Assembly (NCBI RefSeq): GCF_002945325.1
Contig: NZ_CP026606.1
Span: 1,620,001 to 1,652,000 of the forward strand
From: Methanococcus maripaludis
GTDB taxonomy: Archaea; AGJL01; Methanococci; Methanococcales; Methanococcaceae
Reading direction: 5' to 3'
DNA: 32,000 bases
The notes under the pieces are model-generated. The model had not been told where the DNA came from, ran no database searches, and saw only the letters and a list, made by a program, of their open reading frames with translations. The position numbers were made by a program, and so were the translations under genes. The stretch's first letter is position 1. Every line of letters starts with the position of its first letter. Of the stretch, positions 2,966 to 21,839 are shown piece after piece.

Positions 2966-3214
2966 TTATTCATCAAGTCTTTGTGTTCTTCTAACTGTAA
3001 ATGCGAAAAATGCAGGTAAAACCGCTCCACCTAAAATTGCTTCTGTTAATGCAACATCTGGTGCAAGTAATGAGCTGAAAAGGAATGCAAGTCCAAGTCC
3101 GCCAAGTCCTGTTAAAACAACACACTTAATTAAGTCTTTTTGAATCAAAGCACCGATGTATGACATTAAAACGAGTGCCATTATCAAAAAATCAATATAA
3201 ATACTCATTTTCAC
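2966..3214 (-). CDS. ehbD: Small integral membrane protein, MbhD/DUF4040 (MnhB N-terminal)-like subunit of an Mrp-type/energy-converting hydrogenase membrane arm; candidate EhbD
   Basis: Three predicted TM helices. The LLAPDVALTEAILGGAVL...FTVRRTQ stretch matches the APDVALTEA core I remember for DUF4040/MbhD. It starts 3 nt after the preceding MnhG-like gene. Assignment to Ehb rests on remembered reports that M. maripaludis ehb genes are dispersed in small pairs. Confidence 0.6.
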   Translation of the reverse strand: MKMSIYIDFLIMALVLMSYIGALIQKDLIKCVVLTGLGGLGLAFLFSSLLAPDVALTEAILGGAVLPAFFAFTVRRTQRLDE

Positions 3215-3217
3215 ACC

Positions 3218-3472
3218 TTACTGCTTTTTTAATTCATCGAAGTAGTCTGCATTAGCTATTGCATGTGCTGAGAATGGAACTAACACGAGATATGTTAAAG
3301 CAAGCAAATACTGTCTGAATACAAGCAATATCACGATACATGCGATATCAATAACCCCCGTTATATGGAGCCTTGCATAAACCATTTTTTCACGGTCTTT
3401 TTCAACCCAGAGCCTAAATGATGCTAACAATATCCCAATAGACGCAATTATTAGTACAATATCGTCAAACAT
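3218..3472 (-). CDS. ehbC: Small integral membrane protein, MnhG/MbhC-like subunit; candidate EhbC
   Basis: 84 aa with 3 TM helices. It has the ARLHITGVID motif (compare MnhG RLHAxxKxxTLG) and C-terminal PFSAHAIANADY (compare MnhG PxxAHxIARAA). It is co-directional with and 3 nt upstream of the DUF4040-like gene. Confidence 0.6.
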   Translation of the reverse strand: MFDDIVLIIASIGILLASFRLWVEKDREKMVYARLHITGVIDIACIVILLVFRQYLLALTYLVLVPFSAHAIANADYFDELKKQ

Positions 3473-5977: not shown

Positions 5978-6904
5978 TTGAAAAAGATATATTACTATTC
6001 AATCGCAGTATTTTTGATAATTGCAATTTTAATGGTCGGACTCTTGGTTTTTGTATCTTCTGACGGAATATCGTCTAAAAATATTGCACTTATTAATATA
6101 GATGGAACAATAACACTTGAAAGTTCAGATTCTGGACTTTTTAGCTCAATTCAACCAGGGGTAAATGATTACGTGGAATGGTTAGATGACGCAGAGAATA
6201 ATGATAATATCAAAGCAGTAATTATAAAAATAAATTCACCGGGCGGAGGGGCTGTTGCAAGTGAAAAACTTTCCCGAAAAATAAAAGAAGTTTCCGAAAA
6301 AAAGCCGGTTGTTGCATACATCGAAAATATGGGTGCATCTGCAGCATACCAAGCTGCTTCATCAACTAATTATATCGTTGCAGAAAGACAGGCAGTTGTT
6401 GGAAGTATCGGTGTTAGGATGGAATTAATACACTACTACGGTTTAATGGAAAAACTTGGAATTAATACAACCAGCATAACTGGTGGAAAATATAAAGATA
6501 TCGGAACACCAACAAGGTCAATGACTGAAGAAGAGTATGCAATGCTTGAATCAATGGTCAATGAAAGTTACTACGAATTTGTGTCATGGGTTGCTGAAAA
6601 CAGGAACATGACGATAAATGAAACTTTAGAAGTTGCGGATGGTAAAATTTACAGCGGTACACAAGCTCAAAAAGTAGGGCTTGTTGATATGACTGGAACT
6701 GAAGATGATGCAGTTGATATGGCCGTAAAATTAGGAAATATTACGAATCCTGACATTTATGAATATGGTGAAACTTCAACTGTTAGTTTATTTGGAATGA
6801 CATTTAATGACTGCTTATACAGTTTTGGATATGGTCTTGGAATGGGCCTTTCTGAAAATTTAAATACAGAAGAAAGCTTTAAATCTTACCAGGTTTATTA
6901 TTGA
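5978..6904 (+). CDS. sppA: Signal peptide peptidase SppA (S49 family), membrane anchored
   Basis: S49 motifs INSPGGGAVAS and the catalytic-serine region NMGASAAYQAASS, with an N-terminal TM helix (IAVFLIIAILMVGLLVFV). TTG start at 5978 lies 5 nt after a GGAGGGG RBS. The track's 5900 start would overlap the upstream gene. Confidence 0.85.
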   Translation: MKKIYYYSIAVFLIIAILMVGLLVFVSSDGISSKNIALINIDGTITLESSDSGLFSSIQPGVNDYVEWLDDAENNDNIKAVIIKINSPGGGAVASEKLSRKIKEVSEKKPVVAYIENMGASAAYQAASSTNYIVAERQAVVGSIGVRMELIHYYGLMEKLGINTTSITGGKYKDIGTPTRSMTEEEYAMLESMVNESYYEFVSWVAENRNMTINETLEVADGKIYSGTQAQKVGLVDMTGTEDDAVDMAVKLGNITNPDIYEYGETSTVSLFGMTFNDCLYSFGYGLGMGLSENLNTEESFKSYQVYY

Positions 6905-6947
6905 TAAACTTAATAAAACACGCTTTTTCTTTTTTATGGTGAGAAAT

Positions 6948-7904
6948 ATGCTTATTGAATCGGTTCTTTTTTTAGCAGCAGGTTTATTCATGCTATCCTA
7001 TGGTAGTGATTGGTTTGTTTTAGGTGCTTCACGCGTTGCAAAACAGTTTAACATTTCGAGTTTTGTAATTGGGGCTACAATTGTTGCATTTGGAACGTCA
7101 CTTCCTGAAATTGTAACAAGTGCATACGCTGCATCCACAGGTTCCGTTGAACTGGCAGTTGGAAATGCCCTTGGAAGTTGTATTGCAAATATCGGGCTAG
7201 TACTTGGTCTAAGCTTGATAATTTCCACAGTATTTATTAAAAATAGGTCTGTTCTTAAAAACGGTTATTTATACATAATTTACACGATAATTTTTACTGC
7301 AATCGGATATAACGGGTTTTCATTCTTTGACGGTATATTTTTACTGTTTTTACTTTTAGTTTATATAATATATACTATAAAATCCGGTGAAATGGACGAC
7401 GAAGAGCATGAAAAAAGTATAACGTTTAAAAAAGCAATAATTTACCTTTTAATAGGCCTATTACTCGTAATATTGGGAAGTAGTTTCTTTGTCGACGGTG
7501 CAAAAGGTCTTGCAAGTGCTTTTGGAGTTTCTGAAAAAATTATTGGATTTACAATCGTTGCATTTGGAACGTCACTTCCTGAACTTTCGGTTTCATTTGC
7601 TGCAGCAAGGCAGAAACTTGGTGGAATTGTTATTGGAAATGTGATTGGAAGTAATATTGCAAACATGTTTGGGGCTCTTGCAATTGCATCAATTATCCAT
7701 GAAATTCCGGCAGTTAAATTTGAGCTTTCAGTTAATATTTTGATGGTACTTTTGCTGGTAGCAATGATGAGTAAGGAAAAACTAAAAACACTATTGAAAT
7801 TAAACTCTACAAAAGAGTATCTGTCAAAAATTACAAAAGCAGATGGTTTAATTTTGATATTAATCTATCTTTTATTCGTTTTAGGGCTTACAGGACTCTT
7901 TTAA
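6948..7904 (+). CDS. CaCA-family Na+/Ca2+ exchanger (YrbG / NCX_Mj type)
   Basis: Two alpha-repeat signatures, GTSLPEIVTS and GTSLPELSVS, lie in two 5-TM halves separated by an acidic loop (GEMDDEEHEK). ATG 6948 is preceded by GGTGAG. Confidence 0.85.
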   Translation: MLIESVLFLAAGLFMLSYGSDWFVLGASRVAKQFNISSFVIGATIVAFGTSLPEIVTSAYAASTGSVELAVGNALGSCIANIGLVLGLSLIISTVFIKNRSVLKNGYLYIIYTIIFTAIGYNGFSFFDGIFLLFLLLVYIIYTIKSGEMDDEEHEKSITFKKAIIYLLIGLLLVILGSSFFVDGAKGLASAFGVSEKIIGFTIVAFGTSLPELSVSFAAARQKLGGIVIGNVIGSNIANMFGALAIASIIHEIPAVKFELSVNILMVLLLVAMMSKEKLKTLLKLNSTKEYLSKITKADGLILILIYLLFVLGLTGLF

Positions 7905-7905
7905 A

Positions 7906-7927
7906 TTTTCTTTTTTTATTATTTTTT
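7906..7927 (+). terminator. Oligo-T tracts after the exchanger gene
   Basis: TTTTCTTTTTTTATTATTTTTT begins 2 nt after the stop codon. Confidence 0.4.
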
Positions 7928-8080
7928 CAATTTTAAAGCTGTATACCATACAACTTTTTTAAATCACCTTTTTTACCAATTATTTCTAAAAATCGTCGTT
8001 AAAAATATAAATTAGAAAAATCATAACTCTCGAGTATTCAATACATTTTAACACTAATCGAAAATGTTCGGGGTGAACAC

Positions 8081-8180
8081 TTGATAAAAAAAATGTCTAT
8101 TACTATGTTTACTGCTTTTTGCAGTAGGAAATGTTAATGCGGCAGAGATATCCGATTATTCAAATCAGACTGATGTTGAT
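8081..8180 (+). other. Frameshifted 5' end of the surface-protein gene: TTG start plus RBS, A8 tract, then an out-of-frame signal peptide
   Basis: GGGTGA RBS (8071-8076) and TTG (8081) open a frame that stops after 18 codons (TAA 8135-8137). The frame of the 1028-aa ORF is open from 8088 and encodes KKCLLLCLLLFAVGNVNAAEISDYSNQTDVD with no start codon of its own. Deleting one A from the A8 run at 8086-8093 joins the two. Confidence 0.75.
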
Positions 8181-11100
8181 ATGGGCGGATGGACAGCTCA
8201 CGCGTTTATAGTTATTGATAAACCGGGTGAATATACGGTAACAACAGGTTTTGCAAACAATTCATTGGATAGCAATAGTATTGTATTTTTAATTAACAAT
8301 ACTGAAAATGTTACACTCGATTGTAACGAAATGTCTTTTACAACCAACACAACAAACTCAAGTATTCTGGTTTACGCTTACAATTCAAGCAATATTGTAG
8401 TTAAAAACATGAATGCTAACTGGTCTAAAGATACAATTATTTTTGAAAATGTTAATGATTCAACAATTGAAAACTCAGAAATTATTACTGAAGGCTATTC
8501 AATCAAGTTAGAAGATTCTTACGGAGCTACGATTTCAGGAAATGACATTACCGTTGCAAATGGTGAATACTACGGTATTTATGTTGACGGAAATCTTGAA
8601 AACGGCACTATTTTTGGAAATACAATTAATGTTACAAATAACAACAATGTTTGTGGTATCTACACAGTATCAAATATTACAAACAGCGTAATTTCAGGAA
8701 ATACCATTACAGTAAATACAGACCGTAATGCTTACGCTATTTGCGCTGATGAATATATTGTGGACTCAACGATTGAAAATAACGTAATCGATTTAGTTGC
8801 TGGCGATGATGGATATACTGAAGCTTTAGGTATTAGTGCCTACGACGAAGATATTCTCAATACCACAATTTCAGGAAATAACATTACAGCAGAGGCATAC
8901 TGGTGGGCCTGCGGTATTGACGCATACTATGTTATGTACTCAGAAATTGAAAATAACGTAATCAATGTTACTGCAAGGGGCAATGATGAGGTATACGCTG
9001 ACGGTATCTATGCAGATTATAATATTACCAACAACGTAATTTCAGGAAATAATATTACGGCATACTCAAACGACTGGGCTTGTGGTATTGACGCATACTC
9101 CGGTGACATCGTAGACTCAACAATCGAAGATAACGTAATCGACGTTTATGTCTATGATTATTATAACTACGGTGAAGCATTTGGTATCTACGCATATTAT
9201 AATATCAACAACACCGAAATTTTAAGAAATACACTCACAGCAAACGCATCGTACGAAGCTTACGGTATTTGCACATCTGATAATGATATCGTAGACTCAA
9301 CAATCGAAGATAACGTAATCGACCTTATCGCTAATGGTGAGTATTTCTACGAAAATCTTTACGCCTATACTTACGCTATTTGCGCAGATGATTATATCAA
9401 CAACAGCGTAATTTCAAGAAATATTATCACAGCAGAATCATGCTACGAAACTGATGGTATCGAAGCATACGATGAGAGTATAATAGATTCAACAATCGAA
9501 GATAACGTAATCGACCTTATCGCTACTGGTGATTCTAATTATATTTACGCCATATATGCTGATGAATACACGATAAACTCAAGCATCTCTGGAAATACCA
9601 TTACAGCAAACGCATCCGACGAAGCTTTTGGTGTTTATTTATACTACTATGTTACAAATACCACAATTTCTGATAACCAAGTCACTATTATTTCAGAGAG
9701 TGACAGTGAAGATGAAGCTTACGGTATTTACCTTTACTATGGTGCAGAAACCAGCATTATATCAAGTAACTCGGTTATAACTTATGGAAATTACTCACAT
9801 GGTATAGAATTCGATGATTATGGCGATATAATCAATGTAACAATTTCCGACAACACCATTACAACGTACGGTGAAGATGCTTATGGTATAAGTATCGAGT
9901 ACGACATGTATGACAGCATAATTACAGGAAATACTGTGAATACATTTGGAAATGATTCTTACGGTATTTACACTTACTACGATATATATGACAGTAAAAT
10001 TTCCGACAACACCATTACAACGTACGGTGATTATGCCTATGGTATAGAATTGTATGATGATGATTACTACAATGTAACGTTGGCGCAAAATACGGTCACA
10101 ACGTACGGTGAAGATGCTTATGGTATAAGTATCGAGTACGACATGTATGACAGCATAATTACAGGAAATACTGTGAATACATTTGGAAATGATTCTTACG
10201 GTATTTACACGTACTACTCTGTTACAAATACGACAATTTCGAGTAACACAGTCACAACAGAAGGATCATGGGCTTACGGTATCTACATCTACGACGATCC
10301 ACTCATAGATTCGACAATTTCCGACAACGCAGTGACAACAGCCGGATACGAAGCTTACGGTATTTACATTGAATATGGGGCTGAAAACAGCAATATCTCA
10401 GGTAACACGGTTATAACAAATGGTGAAGATACTTACGCTCTTTATTTATATGATGTAACAACTTCGTCCATATTTGAAAACACATTCACCTCAGGTGATT
10501 ATGCAATATACATTAACAGCTCAGAAGAAAACAGATTCTACTTAAATAACATTGATGGATTATTAAACAATGGAACAGACAACTACTTTGTTTCAAGTGA
10601 AACAATAACTTACAGCTACAATGGAAAATCATACACCAGTATTCTTGGAAACTATTGGGTAGGTTATGATGAATCTGATACGAATGGTGACGGTATAATC
10701 GATACACCATACACACTAAACGGTACAAATGATACAAAACCACTCGCTGACATGTGGAATGACGGTGAAATTGGAAACTACGTTGCACCATCAAGATCAT
10801 CCGGCGGTAGTGGAAGAAGTTACGATTCAGACATTTCAGATGAAATCGAATCAAAAGTTATTAAAAACTTCGTTTCAAGTGCAACCGTGCTCTTTGGAAA
10901 CGGAATTGATGAACAATATGCAGTTCAATTACGAGAAAGAGTAACCGATGCAAACGGCTACACAATTTCTGGAAATGCAGTAATTGTTGGTGGGCCAAAC
11001 GCAAATGGCTTTGCAAAAGAATACAACGACCAGTTTGAAATGCCAATTTCAAACGACTATCCTGGTGAAAACAGGGGAATTATTCAGGTTATGGATATTC

Positions 11101-11267
11101 AAGACAACTCTGGAACAATCATTAGAAGTTATACAATTGTATATATTGCAGGAAGTGACAGATTAGGAACACAAGCTGCTTTAGAATACTTTAAAACTTT
11201 GGATGAGTTGCCAGAAGGCCCAATCATGATTGAATGGACTGCAAATGGACCTGTAGTTGTTGAATAA
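8181..11267 (+). CDS. Large secreted parallel beta-helix (PbH1/NosD-like) repeat protein with S-layer/cell-wall-binding-like C-terminal domain; adhesin-like surface protein, apparently frameshifted at its 5' end
   Basis: About 780 aa of 26-30-residue coils (I-S-G-N-x-I-T ... A-Y-G-I-Y) precede the GNYWVGYDESDTNGDGIIDTPY cap typical of NosD-type beta-helices. A Ser/Gly linker follows, then about 190 aa with VIVGGPNANGF and IAGSDRLGTQAALEY motifs. N-x-S/T sequons are very dense. Coordinates are the ORF as given; the true start is probably TTG 8081 after frame correction. Confidence 0.8.
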   Translation: MGGWTAHAFIVIDKPGEYTVTTGFANNSLDSNSIVFLINNTENVTLDCNEMSFTTNTTNSSILVYAYNSSNIVVKNMNANWSKDTIIFENVNDSTIENSEIITEGYSIKLEDSYGATISGNDITVANGEYYGIYVDGNLENGTIFGNTINVTNNNNVCGIYTVSNITNSVISGNTITVNTDRNAYAICADEYIVDSTIENNVIDLVAGDDGYTEALGISAYDEDILNTTISGNNITAEAYWWACGIDAYYVMYSEIENNVINVTARGNDEVYADGIYADYNITNNVISGNNITAYSNDWACGIDAYSGDIVDSTIEDNVIDVYVYDYYNYGEAFGIYAYYNINNTEILRNTLTANASYEAYGICTSDNDIVDSTIEDNVIDLIANGEYFYENLYAYTYAICADDYINNSVISRNIITAESCYETDGIEAYDESIIDSTIEDNVIDLIATGDSNYIYAIYADEYTINSSISGNTITANASDEAFGVYLYYYVTNTTISDNQVTIISESDSEDEAYGIYLYYGAETSIISSNSVITYGNYSHGIEFDDYGDIINVTISDNTITTYGEDAYGISIEYDMYDSIITGNTVNTFGNDSYGIYTYYDIYDSKISDNTITTYGDYAYGIELYDDDYYNVTLAQNTVTTYGEDAYGISIEYDMYDSIITGNTVNTFGNDSYGIYTYYSVTNTTISSNTVTTEGSWAYGIYIYDDPLIDSTISDNAVTTAGYEAYGIYIEYGAENSNISGNTVITNGEDTYALYLYDVTTSSIFENTFTSGDYAIYINSSEENRFYLNNIDGLLNNGTDNYFVSSETITYSYNGKSYTSILGNYWVGYDESDTNGDGIIDTPYTLNGTNDTKPLADMWNDGEIGNYVAPSRSSGGSGRSYDSDISDEIESKVIKNFVSSATVLFGNGIDEQYAVQLRERVTDANGYTISGNAVIVGGPNANGFAKEYNDQFEMPISNDYPGENRGIIQVMDIQDNSGTIIRSYTIVYIAGSDRLGTQAALEYFKTLDELPEGPIMIEWTANGPVVVE
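9842..10217 (+). repeat. Intragenic direct repeats: 113-nt perfect copy (9861-9973 = 10098-10210), extending to 120 nt with 1 mismatch, plus a 33-nt perfect copy (9842-9874 = 9998-10030)
   Basis: Read directly by aligning the text. The offsets of 237 nt (79 codons, three beta-helix coils) and 156 nt (52 codons, two coils) both preserve the reading frame. Confidence 0.95.
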
Positions 11268-21765: not shown

Positions 21766-21839
21766 GGGCTGATAGCTCAGACTGGGAGAGTGCCGCATTG
21801 GCTATGCGGATGCCGCGGGTTCAAATCCCGCTCAGTCCA
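21766..21839 (+). tRNA. tRNA-Ala (anticodon GGC)
   Basis: Manual cloverleaf. Acceptor stem is GGGCUGA/UCAGUCC with the alanine identity pair G3:U70. D arm is GCUC-AGACUGGGA-GAGU. Anticodon arm is CCGCA-UUGGCUA-UGCGG (anticodon GGC). Variable loop is 5 nt. T arm is GCGGG-UUCAAAU-CCCGC. Discriminator is A, followed by genomic CC (CCA not fully encoded). Confidence 0.9.

Follow-up and report, generated by a model that had tools for sequence, protein, structure and literature searches.

A probable natural null allele of a gene for a putatively S-layer-anchored beta-helix protein in Methanococcus maripaludis, with one additional adenine in the signal-peptide n-region

We examined a 32,000-nucleotide (nt) stretch of DNA from Methanococcus maripaludis (NCBI RefSeq assembly GCF_002945325.1, contig NZ_CP026606.1, positions 1,620,001 to 1,652,000 of the forward strand; hereafter the window) and, within it, the gene publicly annotated as encoding a 1028-amino-acid (aa) "NosD domain-containing protein". 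The comparison of this gene with its intact orthologue revealed that it is probably a natural loss-of-function allele, carrying one extra adenine (+1A), of a gene for a secreted, putatively S-layer-anchored beta-helix protein, and that this allele has been inherited and exchanged among strains. Coordinates are those of the window and refer to the plus strand unless stated otherwise.

As we picture the course of events, the ancestral 5' end would have comprised a promoter, a GGGGTGA Shine-Dalgarno (SD) sequence, a TTG start codon, an ATA codon, a run of seven adenines (A7) encoding Lys-Lys, and a signal peptide. Slippage during replication would most likely have inserted one A into the A7 tract. 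Ribosomes starting at the SD-led TTG would then make an 18-residue dead-end peptide that stops at 8135-8137, and the signal peptide and the 3.1-kb body would be left without a start codon of their own, so that the exported protein would not be made; the ATG at 8181 could yield at most a trace of a signal-less cytoplasmic product, and the gene would appear to be dispensable. The resulting run of eight adenines (A8) is a heritable allele, stable among the contigs compared, which would have reached two lineages with about 5% flank divergence by recombination, and one of these lineages has since gained a second, irreversible lesion.

The start region and the A8 run

Direct reading confirmed the window sequence around the A8 run element by element. 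The gene appeared to be an independent unit, as it is preceded by an oligo-T tract after a Na/Ca-exchanger gene and has its own promoter-like block, an A/T-rich stretch resembling a B recognition element (BRE) and TATA box (TTAAAAATATAAATTA, 7999..8014), which we regard as a putative archaeal promoter from its position and composition. The SD-like GGGGTGA (8070..8076) is separated by the 4-nt spacer ACAC from the TTG start codon (8081..8083), and its GGGTGA part (8071-8076) was unchanged in five aligned orthologous sequences and in a paralogue. The TTG is followed by ATA (8084-8086) and by the A8 homopolymer (8086..8093), which arose by +1A from an A7 tract coding for the Lys-Lys n-region. In the window, the TTG is out of frame with the long open reading frame (ORF), whereas in the A7 alleles it is the annotated start of the proteins that we call P0008 and P0004 (MIKKC). 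The translation of the TTG frame is M/L-IKKMSITMFTAFCSRKC, which is ended by the TAA at 8135-8137; what the SD-led TTG encodes in the A8 allele is thus the 18-codon dead-end ORF MIKKMSITMFTAFCSRKC (8081..8137), a peptide of which is MIKKMSITMFTAFCSR.

The long frame begins after the TAA at 8085-8087, continues with KKCLLLCLLLFAVGNVNAAEISDYSNQTDVD and reaches its first possible start at ATG 8181 (MGGWTAH...); no ATG, GTG or TTG was found in this frame between these two points. From that ATG runs the ORF as called in the ORF listing and annotated in public records (8181..11267; 1028 aa), with an MGGW start and no signal peptide. When one A is deleted from the run, TTG-ATA-AAA-AAA is fused to the signal peptide and the whole body, giving MIKKCLLLCLLLFAVGNVNAAEIS. 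An earlier reading of the window from its letters alone (hereafter the sequence-only reading) had described this geometry of SD, TTG 8081, A8, stop at 8135-8137, stranded signal peptide and ORF from 8181, and every element was re-read as it had stated.

The annotated product could nonetheless be real: ribosomes might, for instance, re-initiate at ATG 8181 once they have finished the 18-codon ORF, and yield a functional signal-less 1028-aa protein with the expected N-terminal peptide MGGWTAHAFIVIDK. Public annotations do start there, and the ATG lies 44 nt past the stop of the short ORF. However, direct reading revealed no SD-like GGTG ahead of this ATG, a beta-helix joined to an S-layer-anchoring-like domain only makes sense outside the cell, and the intact orthologue and the paralogue described below each start at the upstream TTG with a signal peptide, which makes a functional product from the internal start most improbable.

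The sequence-only reading had listed a homopolymer assembly error as its first explanation; in this case, as with a sequencing error, the true genome would carry A7, and the gene would be intact and encode an ordinary secreted protein. Errors of this kind often take the form of homopolymer indels, and Nanopore reads were used in one assembly of the type strain JJ. Against this, A8 was present in seven contigs, each from an isolate or metagenome sample of its own, namely the window and the contigs of loci L002, L003, L004, L006, L013 and L014. Besides the window, these are AP011528.1, which we take to be strain OS7, JACCQJ01 and four Joint Genome Institute (JGI) metagenome contigs, all with an identical 5' region. 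Additionally, three contigs of separately deposited assemblies have the identical 1028-aa product with the MGGW start (records AVB77153.1, MBA2863664.1 and MBB6496330.1), and this product was present in GCA_013761225.1 (JACDUO010000001.1), annotated as Methanococcus maripaludis; the presence of A8 in all three assemblies is deduced from this common start, the DNA having been read for one. The closed genome of strain JJ is an Illumina-based hybrid, assembled with Unicycler from Illumina and Nanopore reads (PMC5887029). All other ORFs in the window matched full-length Pfam families and no second broken gene was seen there; therefore, the assembly is not frameshift-prone. For practical purposes, an assembly error is effectively refuted, and with it the first explanation of the sequence-only reading.

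The intact allele and the exported protein

The orthologue P0008 (WP_183545865.1, 1002 aa), a member of the 90%-identity cluster, begins with MIKKCLLLCLLLFAVGNVNAAEISDYSNQTDVDMGGW, which is the corrected N-terminus that the sequence-only reading had obtained by removing one A. Its locus, L007 (GCA_014203295.1, JACHIQ01), has an A7 run and an ORF that is open throughout, and is syntenic with the window, with a Na_Ca_ex gene upstream and a Fer2_3/CCG protein gene downstream. Compared with this intact orthologue, which occupies the same locus, the window gene is disrupted. Comparing the length of the A-run at the orthologous locus, as the sequence-only reading had suggested, gave A7 in L007 and A8 in seven other contigs. 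We also observed that the annotation of L007 is inconsistent: RefSeq has the 1002-aa protein from the SD-led TTG, and GenBank has a 274-aa C-terminal fragment (HNP97_000307, P0052).

A paralogue, P0004, found at another locus of a further strain (L005), has the promoter block, GGGTGA, ACAATTGAT and A7 in common with the window locus. The block at 7999-8014 is identical in the window locus and in this paralogous cassette, and the adjoining positions vary. We also found that L005 2900-3120 (GCA_013761085.1, beside PadR/ABC genes) is near base-identical to the window in its promoter-SD-TTG-ATA-A7-signal peptide arrangement and diverges just past the cleavage site; judged by this likeness, the 5' parts of L005 and the window are a duplicated or exchanged expression and export cassette. 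Because the paralogue, as outgroup, and L007 both have A7, the A7 state with A at 8080 is ancestral and the A8 state with C at 8080 is derived. Another candidate orthologue, P0054 (CP002913, 68% identical), which came from the search with the C-terminal domain, was rejected because it sits at a different locus. A synteny scan of the genome-contig collection with the Na_Ca_ex neighbour gave 219 pattern matches, none of which was confirmed, and degenerate and exact DNA patterns of the cassette, which match the window, found no match in the genome or metagenome contig collections, which apparently lack these loci.

The signal-peptide segment stranded in the window, KKCLLLCLLLFAVGNVNA (8088..8141), is the same as residues 3-20 of P0008, and cleavage is predicted after VNA, between 8141 and 8142, by the small-x-small rule. 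Read by rule, composition and hydropathy, the restored N-terminus contains all features of the Sec type, namely MIKK, CLLLCLLLFAV and VNA/A; residues 1-5 carry a net charge of +2, and the hydrophobic core, 10 residues long, has a mean Kyte-Doolittle value of 3.4. The annotated MGGW start, in contrast, scores 1.4 and has neither the charge nor the core nor the VNA/A features. The first 33 residues of the upstream frame are the annotated N-terminus of P0008, and 17 of its first 20 residues match the paralogue P0004; the upstream frame is therefore not a chance look-alike of a signal peptide, and the proposal of a signal peptide by the sequence-only reading is borne out. The mature N-terminal tryptic peptide of the frame-restored, signal-cleaved product would be AEISDYSNQTDVDMGGWTAHAFIVIDK.

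The mature protein is dispersed into two components, a beta-helix passenger and a C-terminal domain. The passenger (8142..10826) consists of degenerate repeats of about 28 residues and matched the Pfam families NosD (2.1e-26) and Beta_helix (2.7e-25), with the frame intact throughout. Tandem Repeats Finder reported no repeats in the gene, the repeats being too diverged at the DNA level. The C-terminal domain of about 146 residues (10827..11264) resembles the cell-wall anchoring domain of the Methanococcus S-layer, as judged from Pfam, AlphaFold and Foldseek. In particular, Pfam S_layer_C scored 23.6 bits on this domain, just below the cut-off of 23.9, and the AlphaFold model of the last 245 residues showed a predicted local distance difference test (pLDDT) score of 82-92 for residues 100-245, the final 146 or so. 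The best Foldseek match of this model in the PDB was 9fsa, the S-layer anchoring domain of M. voltae (E 1e-4, TMt 0.53). A PDB sequence search with the intact orthologue gave no match.

Upon comparison with the Methanococcus S-layer protein itself (M. voltae, 9fsa), we found that the C-terminal 146 or so residues of the window protein appear to have the same fold at that Foldseek E-value; the window protein is not a lattice protein, however, as a long NosD-type beta-helix is fused to its anchoring-like domain. The same S_layer_C-like domain occurs in many M. maripaludis paralogues of about 410 aa. The domain is common to about thirty M. maripaludis proteins, and the consensus of their alignment starts with an ordinary signal peptide. 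Judging from this architecture, the protein is designed for export and retention at the S-layer, where it could not function without its signal peptide.

History of the allele

The upstream flank of 2.8 kb differed by about 5% (141/2800) between the window and the group of contigs of the AP011528 type, and by about 2% between L007 and that group. Within 7977-8193, a segment of 217 nt that includes the A8 run, the window and the AP011528 group showed zero differences, and seven differences were present from there onward to 8704. The contrast between this segment and its flanks indicates that the two lineages share the A8-bearing 5' segment by descent, recombination having moved it between them. 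M. maripaludis is naturally transformable (PMC10133366). We considered whether A8 had instead recurred independently in the two lineages, which would be evidence of hypermutability, and rejected this idea, as the two lineages have the zero-difference 217-nt segment around the tract.

When 7977-8704 was compared with the flanking 6869-7976, L007 was seen to have the window alleles at 8552-8588 and AP011528-group alleles upstream, and on these sequence patterns the promoter and N-terminal region is a recombination mosaic. We also observed a unique patch in the 5' untranslated region (UTR) of L007 (L007 2950-3000, corresponding to window 8050-8086), which contains 13 linked differences, including a 5-nt insertion, and ends at the A-run; it also makes an in-frame upstream TTG (L007 2965). 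The differences of L007 are clustered tightly at 8050-8061, 8080 and the run. This clustering suggests that the patch represents another haplotype of the cassette or the trace of a short gene conversion, for which no donor was found.

Alleles of the AP011528 type carry a second lesion in addition to A8. An out-of-frame deletion between repeats, at L002 4270-4330 (AP011528.1) and also in L004, L003, L006, L013 and L014, causes the frame to read ...TTIE and then IMMQ*, with YDAINTTVEYNVIDVY continuing in another frame; at this position, a further 60 residues are present in frame in L007. The deletion divides the gene into pieces of 433-573 aa and 435 aa, which are annotated as two NosD domain proteins and not as one pseudogene. 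In the AP011528-type lineage, the gene is a pseudogene. The first pieces are 433, 461, 489, 517 and 573 aa long (P0003/P0012/P0002/P0010/P0001; loci L002, L013, L004 and L006) and thus differ in steps of 28 residues, so changes of one repeat copy occur readily, even in very close relatives and enrichment metagenomes. The ratio of nonsynonymous to synonymous polymorphism (pN/pS) between alleles was 0.1-0.5, which indicates that the protein evolved under constraint and that the lesions are recent, with too few recent changes to judge relaxed constraint.

Slippage, switching and what the allele means

Four points weigh against a stable null allele. First, the window allele has no lesion beyond A8, and about 1,040 codons downstream of it are open; a reversible off state or low-level rescue by slippage would lead one to expect just the same. 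Second, the tract occupies codons 3-4 of a gene for a variable surface protein, where contingency tracts are classically located. Third, the presence of the A8 haplotype in two lineages could also mean selection for, or cycling of, the off state. Finally, we count here that the text supplements of the JJ proteome/transcriptome and transposon sequencing (Tn-seq) papers had no entry for the locus by product name, gene name or protein accession.

The third explanation of the sequence-only reading was +1 ribosomal slippage of tRNA-Lys or transcriptional slippage on the A-run. Re-pairing on A-AAA-AAA-A, or slippage of RNA polymerase with one A lost or two gained, would restore the frame in part of the products, so that some protein would still be exported. 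The geometry would allow this: a +1 shift on the second AAA gives exactly MIKKCLLL..., the same as the A7-encoded product, and nothing interrupts the frame further downstream in the window. In bacteria, slippage is known to occur on homopolymeric A runs, and 'pseudo-pseudogenes' have been described (PMC1088944). Nevertheless, purposeful slippage is recognised by a run length conserved in homologues (PMC1088944), and both L007 and L005 have A7 and are in frame; the run of 8 nt also stays below 9 nt, the length from which selection against slippage is usually observed, and transcriptional slippage is associated with runs of about 9 or more A/T of conserved length (PMC1088944). The site has neither the slow A-site codon nor the adjacent stimulator of a programmed +1 frameshift: the zero-frame codon after it is ATG, which is neither a stop nor rare, the SD ends about 14 nt upstream of the shift codon and is not adjacent to it, and 8066-8185 folds no better than shuffled sequence (z = -0.46). 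A scan of the window with Rfam found no RNA element near the site. Moreover, in archaea only -1 programmed ribosomal frameshifting (in fucA and some viruses) and read-through for selenocysteine (Sec) and pyrrolysine (Pyl) have been demonstrated (PMC8211752), and in the AP011528 lineage the A8 allele went on to decay. Of this explanation, the geometry stands as a possibility and the rest is unsupported; we consider slippage rescue very unlikely, although it may occur adventitiously at a low level.

Two described systems are instructive in this respect. The 'pseudo-pseudogenes' of Baranov et al. 2005 (PMC1088944) likewise have a frameshifting extra A in an A-run, the rest of the ORF being undamaged, and other strains possess intact alleles; their runs, however, are of about 9 or more and there is expression evidence for some, whereas the window run is 8 nt long and is known here from its sequence. 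The fucA1 gene of Sulfolobus solfataricus (PMC1616953, PMC8211752), likewise archaeal, is also split by a frameshift, and its slippery site is A-rich too. In contrast to the window, fucA1 has a conserved A-AAA-AAT heptamer, a -1 shift, a putative downstream stem-loop and a demonstrated product; the window would need a +1 shift at an unconserved site with no stimulator.

The second explanation of the sequence-only reading, an on/off or inactivating indel, fared better, as an in-frame A7 allele exists at the orthologous locus and the C-terminus is S-layer-anchoring-like. Of its two forms, a fast reversible switch is less favoured than a stable inactivating allele. True phase variation would mean that an A7/A8 contingency tract flips by slipped-strand mispairing and toggles export, the sequenced genomes being in the off phase. 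Consistent with this, either tract length is found at the orthologous locus, and the tract is placed at the very 5' end, in the signal-peptide n-region of a hypervariable surface protein, where its length sets the frame (A7 in, A8 out). The window allele is otherwise intact, and the 5' A7 tract of Listeria inlA, a close analogue, has recurrent natural frameshifts (PMC2831843). However, A8 was found in every AP011528-type and JJ-type contig examined, despite several changes of repeat number in the same set. A7 was found only on the distinct 5' UTR haplotype with its 13 linked differences at 8050-8080, which points to an allele or gene-conversion difference and not to a simple flip, and A8 is identical by descent in the two lineages, the 217 nt around it showing no difference at all and the flanks differing by 5%, which argues against recurrence. 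A/T runs of 8 are also common in this genome's essential genes, up to about 55 genome copies per M. maripaludis cell buffer new indels (PMC9430280), and an irreversible second lesion is fixed in one lineage. Taken together, we regard phase variation at this locus as unlikely.

The tract itself is ordinary. The 32-kb window contained nine A/T runs of 8, none of at least 9 and about 45 of 7, and most of the runs of 8 lie within intact housekeeping ORFs; given these nine runs, the tract is unremarkable in length for a genome of 33% GC. As regards the features that define a contingency locus, we found a frame-setting 5' tract and length polymorphism among strains and found the tract to be neither unusually long nor unusually mutable, so that the window locus has only the structural half of the definition.

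The closest described case is that of the 5' poly(A) alleles of Listeria monocytogenes inlA (Orsi, Bowen and Wiedmann 2010, PMC2831843). As at the window locus, an A7 tract lies in the first codons of a gene for a surface protein with a signal peptide, a single-base indel leads to a peptide of about 8-18 residues and no export, and intact and frameshifted alleles coexist. The two are similar but not identical: in inlA the change is from A7 to A6, in a bacterium, with recurrent deletion shown by population genetics (PMC2831843), whereas in the window it is from A7 to A8, in a polyploid archaeon, with an allele apparently identical by descent. The classical homopolymer contingency loci of Campylobacter, Neisseria, Haemophilus and Bordetella likewise control the frame of a surface product by the length of a 5' coding homopolymer. 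For the genomes concerned, these tracts are of unusual length; most are poly-G/C, and they vary even within a single culture. The window tract, in contrast, is a poly-A of ordinary length that is invariant among close relatives.

A broader form of switching can be envisaged, in which the A7/A8 tract works as a switch of protein export in a polyploid methanogen, either by slipped-strand changes or by exchange of on and off 5' cassettes through natural transformation and gene conversion with paralogues, and in which the off allele spread because loss of the protein was sometimes advantageous, as it could be for a virus receptor or adhesin. We hold this to be distinctly unlikely. If it were true, this would be the first homopolymer-based surface-protein phase variation documented in Archaea, as far as the literature searched shows. 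No methanogen example of phase variation was present among the top literature matches, in agreement with the remark of the sequence-only reading that homopolymer-switched surface proteins are essentially undescribed in methanogens.

Some further features were observed at a second locus and elsewhere in the window. At the second beta-helix/S_layer_C locus (L008-L010) we found no similar frameshift; its MELDP... and MVT... N-termini are choices of start-site annotation. In the window's genome (L009 1455-1503; also in L008 and L010), this locus has a strong SD, GGAGGGGAT, which precedes the annotated ATG by about 29 nt. Between the SD and the ATG in L009, the sequence in frame (INISTLKKLV, with an A7 run) contains no ATG, GTG or TTG, and an ATA lies 4 nt after the SD. 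A short ORF (ATG 1455, MAKRRGSTYQP*) overlaps the start region, and the annotated starts vary by strain. In the window, two small hydrophobic ORFs (82 and 84 aa), resembling small membrane-protein genes, are present on the minus strand at 2966-3472, the only stretch without an ORF of at least 100 aa, and the sole tRNA gene, which is also the only Rfam match in the window, is located at 21766-21839 on the plus strand.

As it stands, the finding of a natural +1A allele points to a well-documented but ordinary strain-specific null allele. It implies that the MGGW start annotated for the 1028-aa "NosD domain-containing protein" in the M. maripaludis type-strain genotype is a frameshift artefact, and that the locus is better flagged as a frameshifted allele of a secreted protein with the true N-terminus MIKKCLLL.... 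It would also mean that model strains differ in their capacity to display a large surface protein, which could affect adhesion, aggregation, virus sensitivity and corrosion-related surface phenotypes. The pair of an A7-on and an A8-off allele, combined with natural competence (PMC10133366), genome-editing tools and polyploidy, provides a natural test case for simple-repeat switching in a polyploid archaeon.

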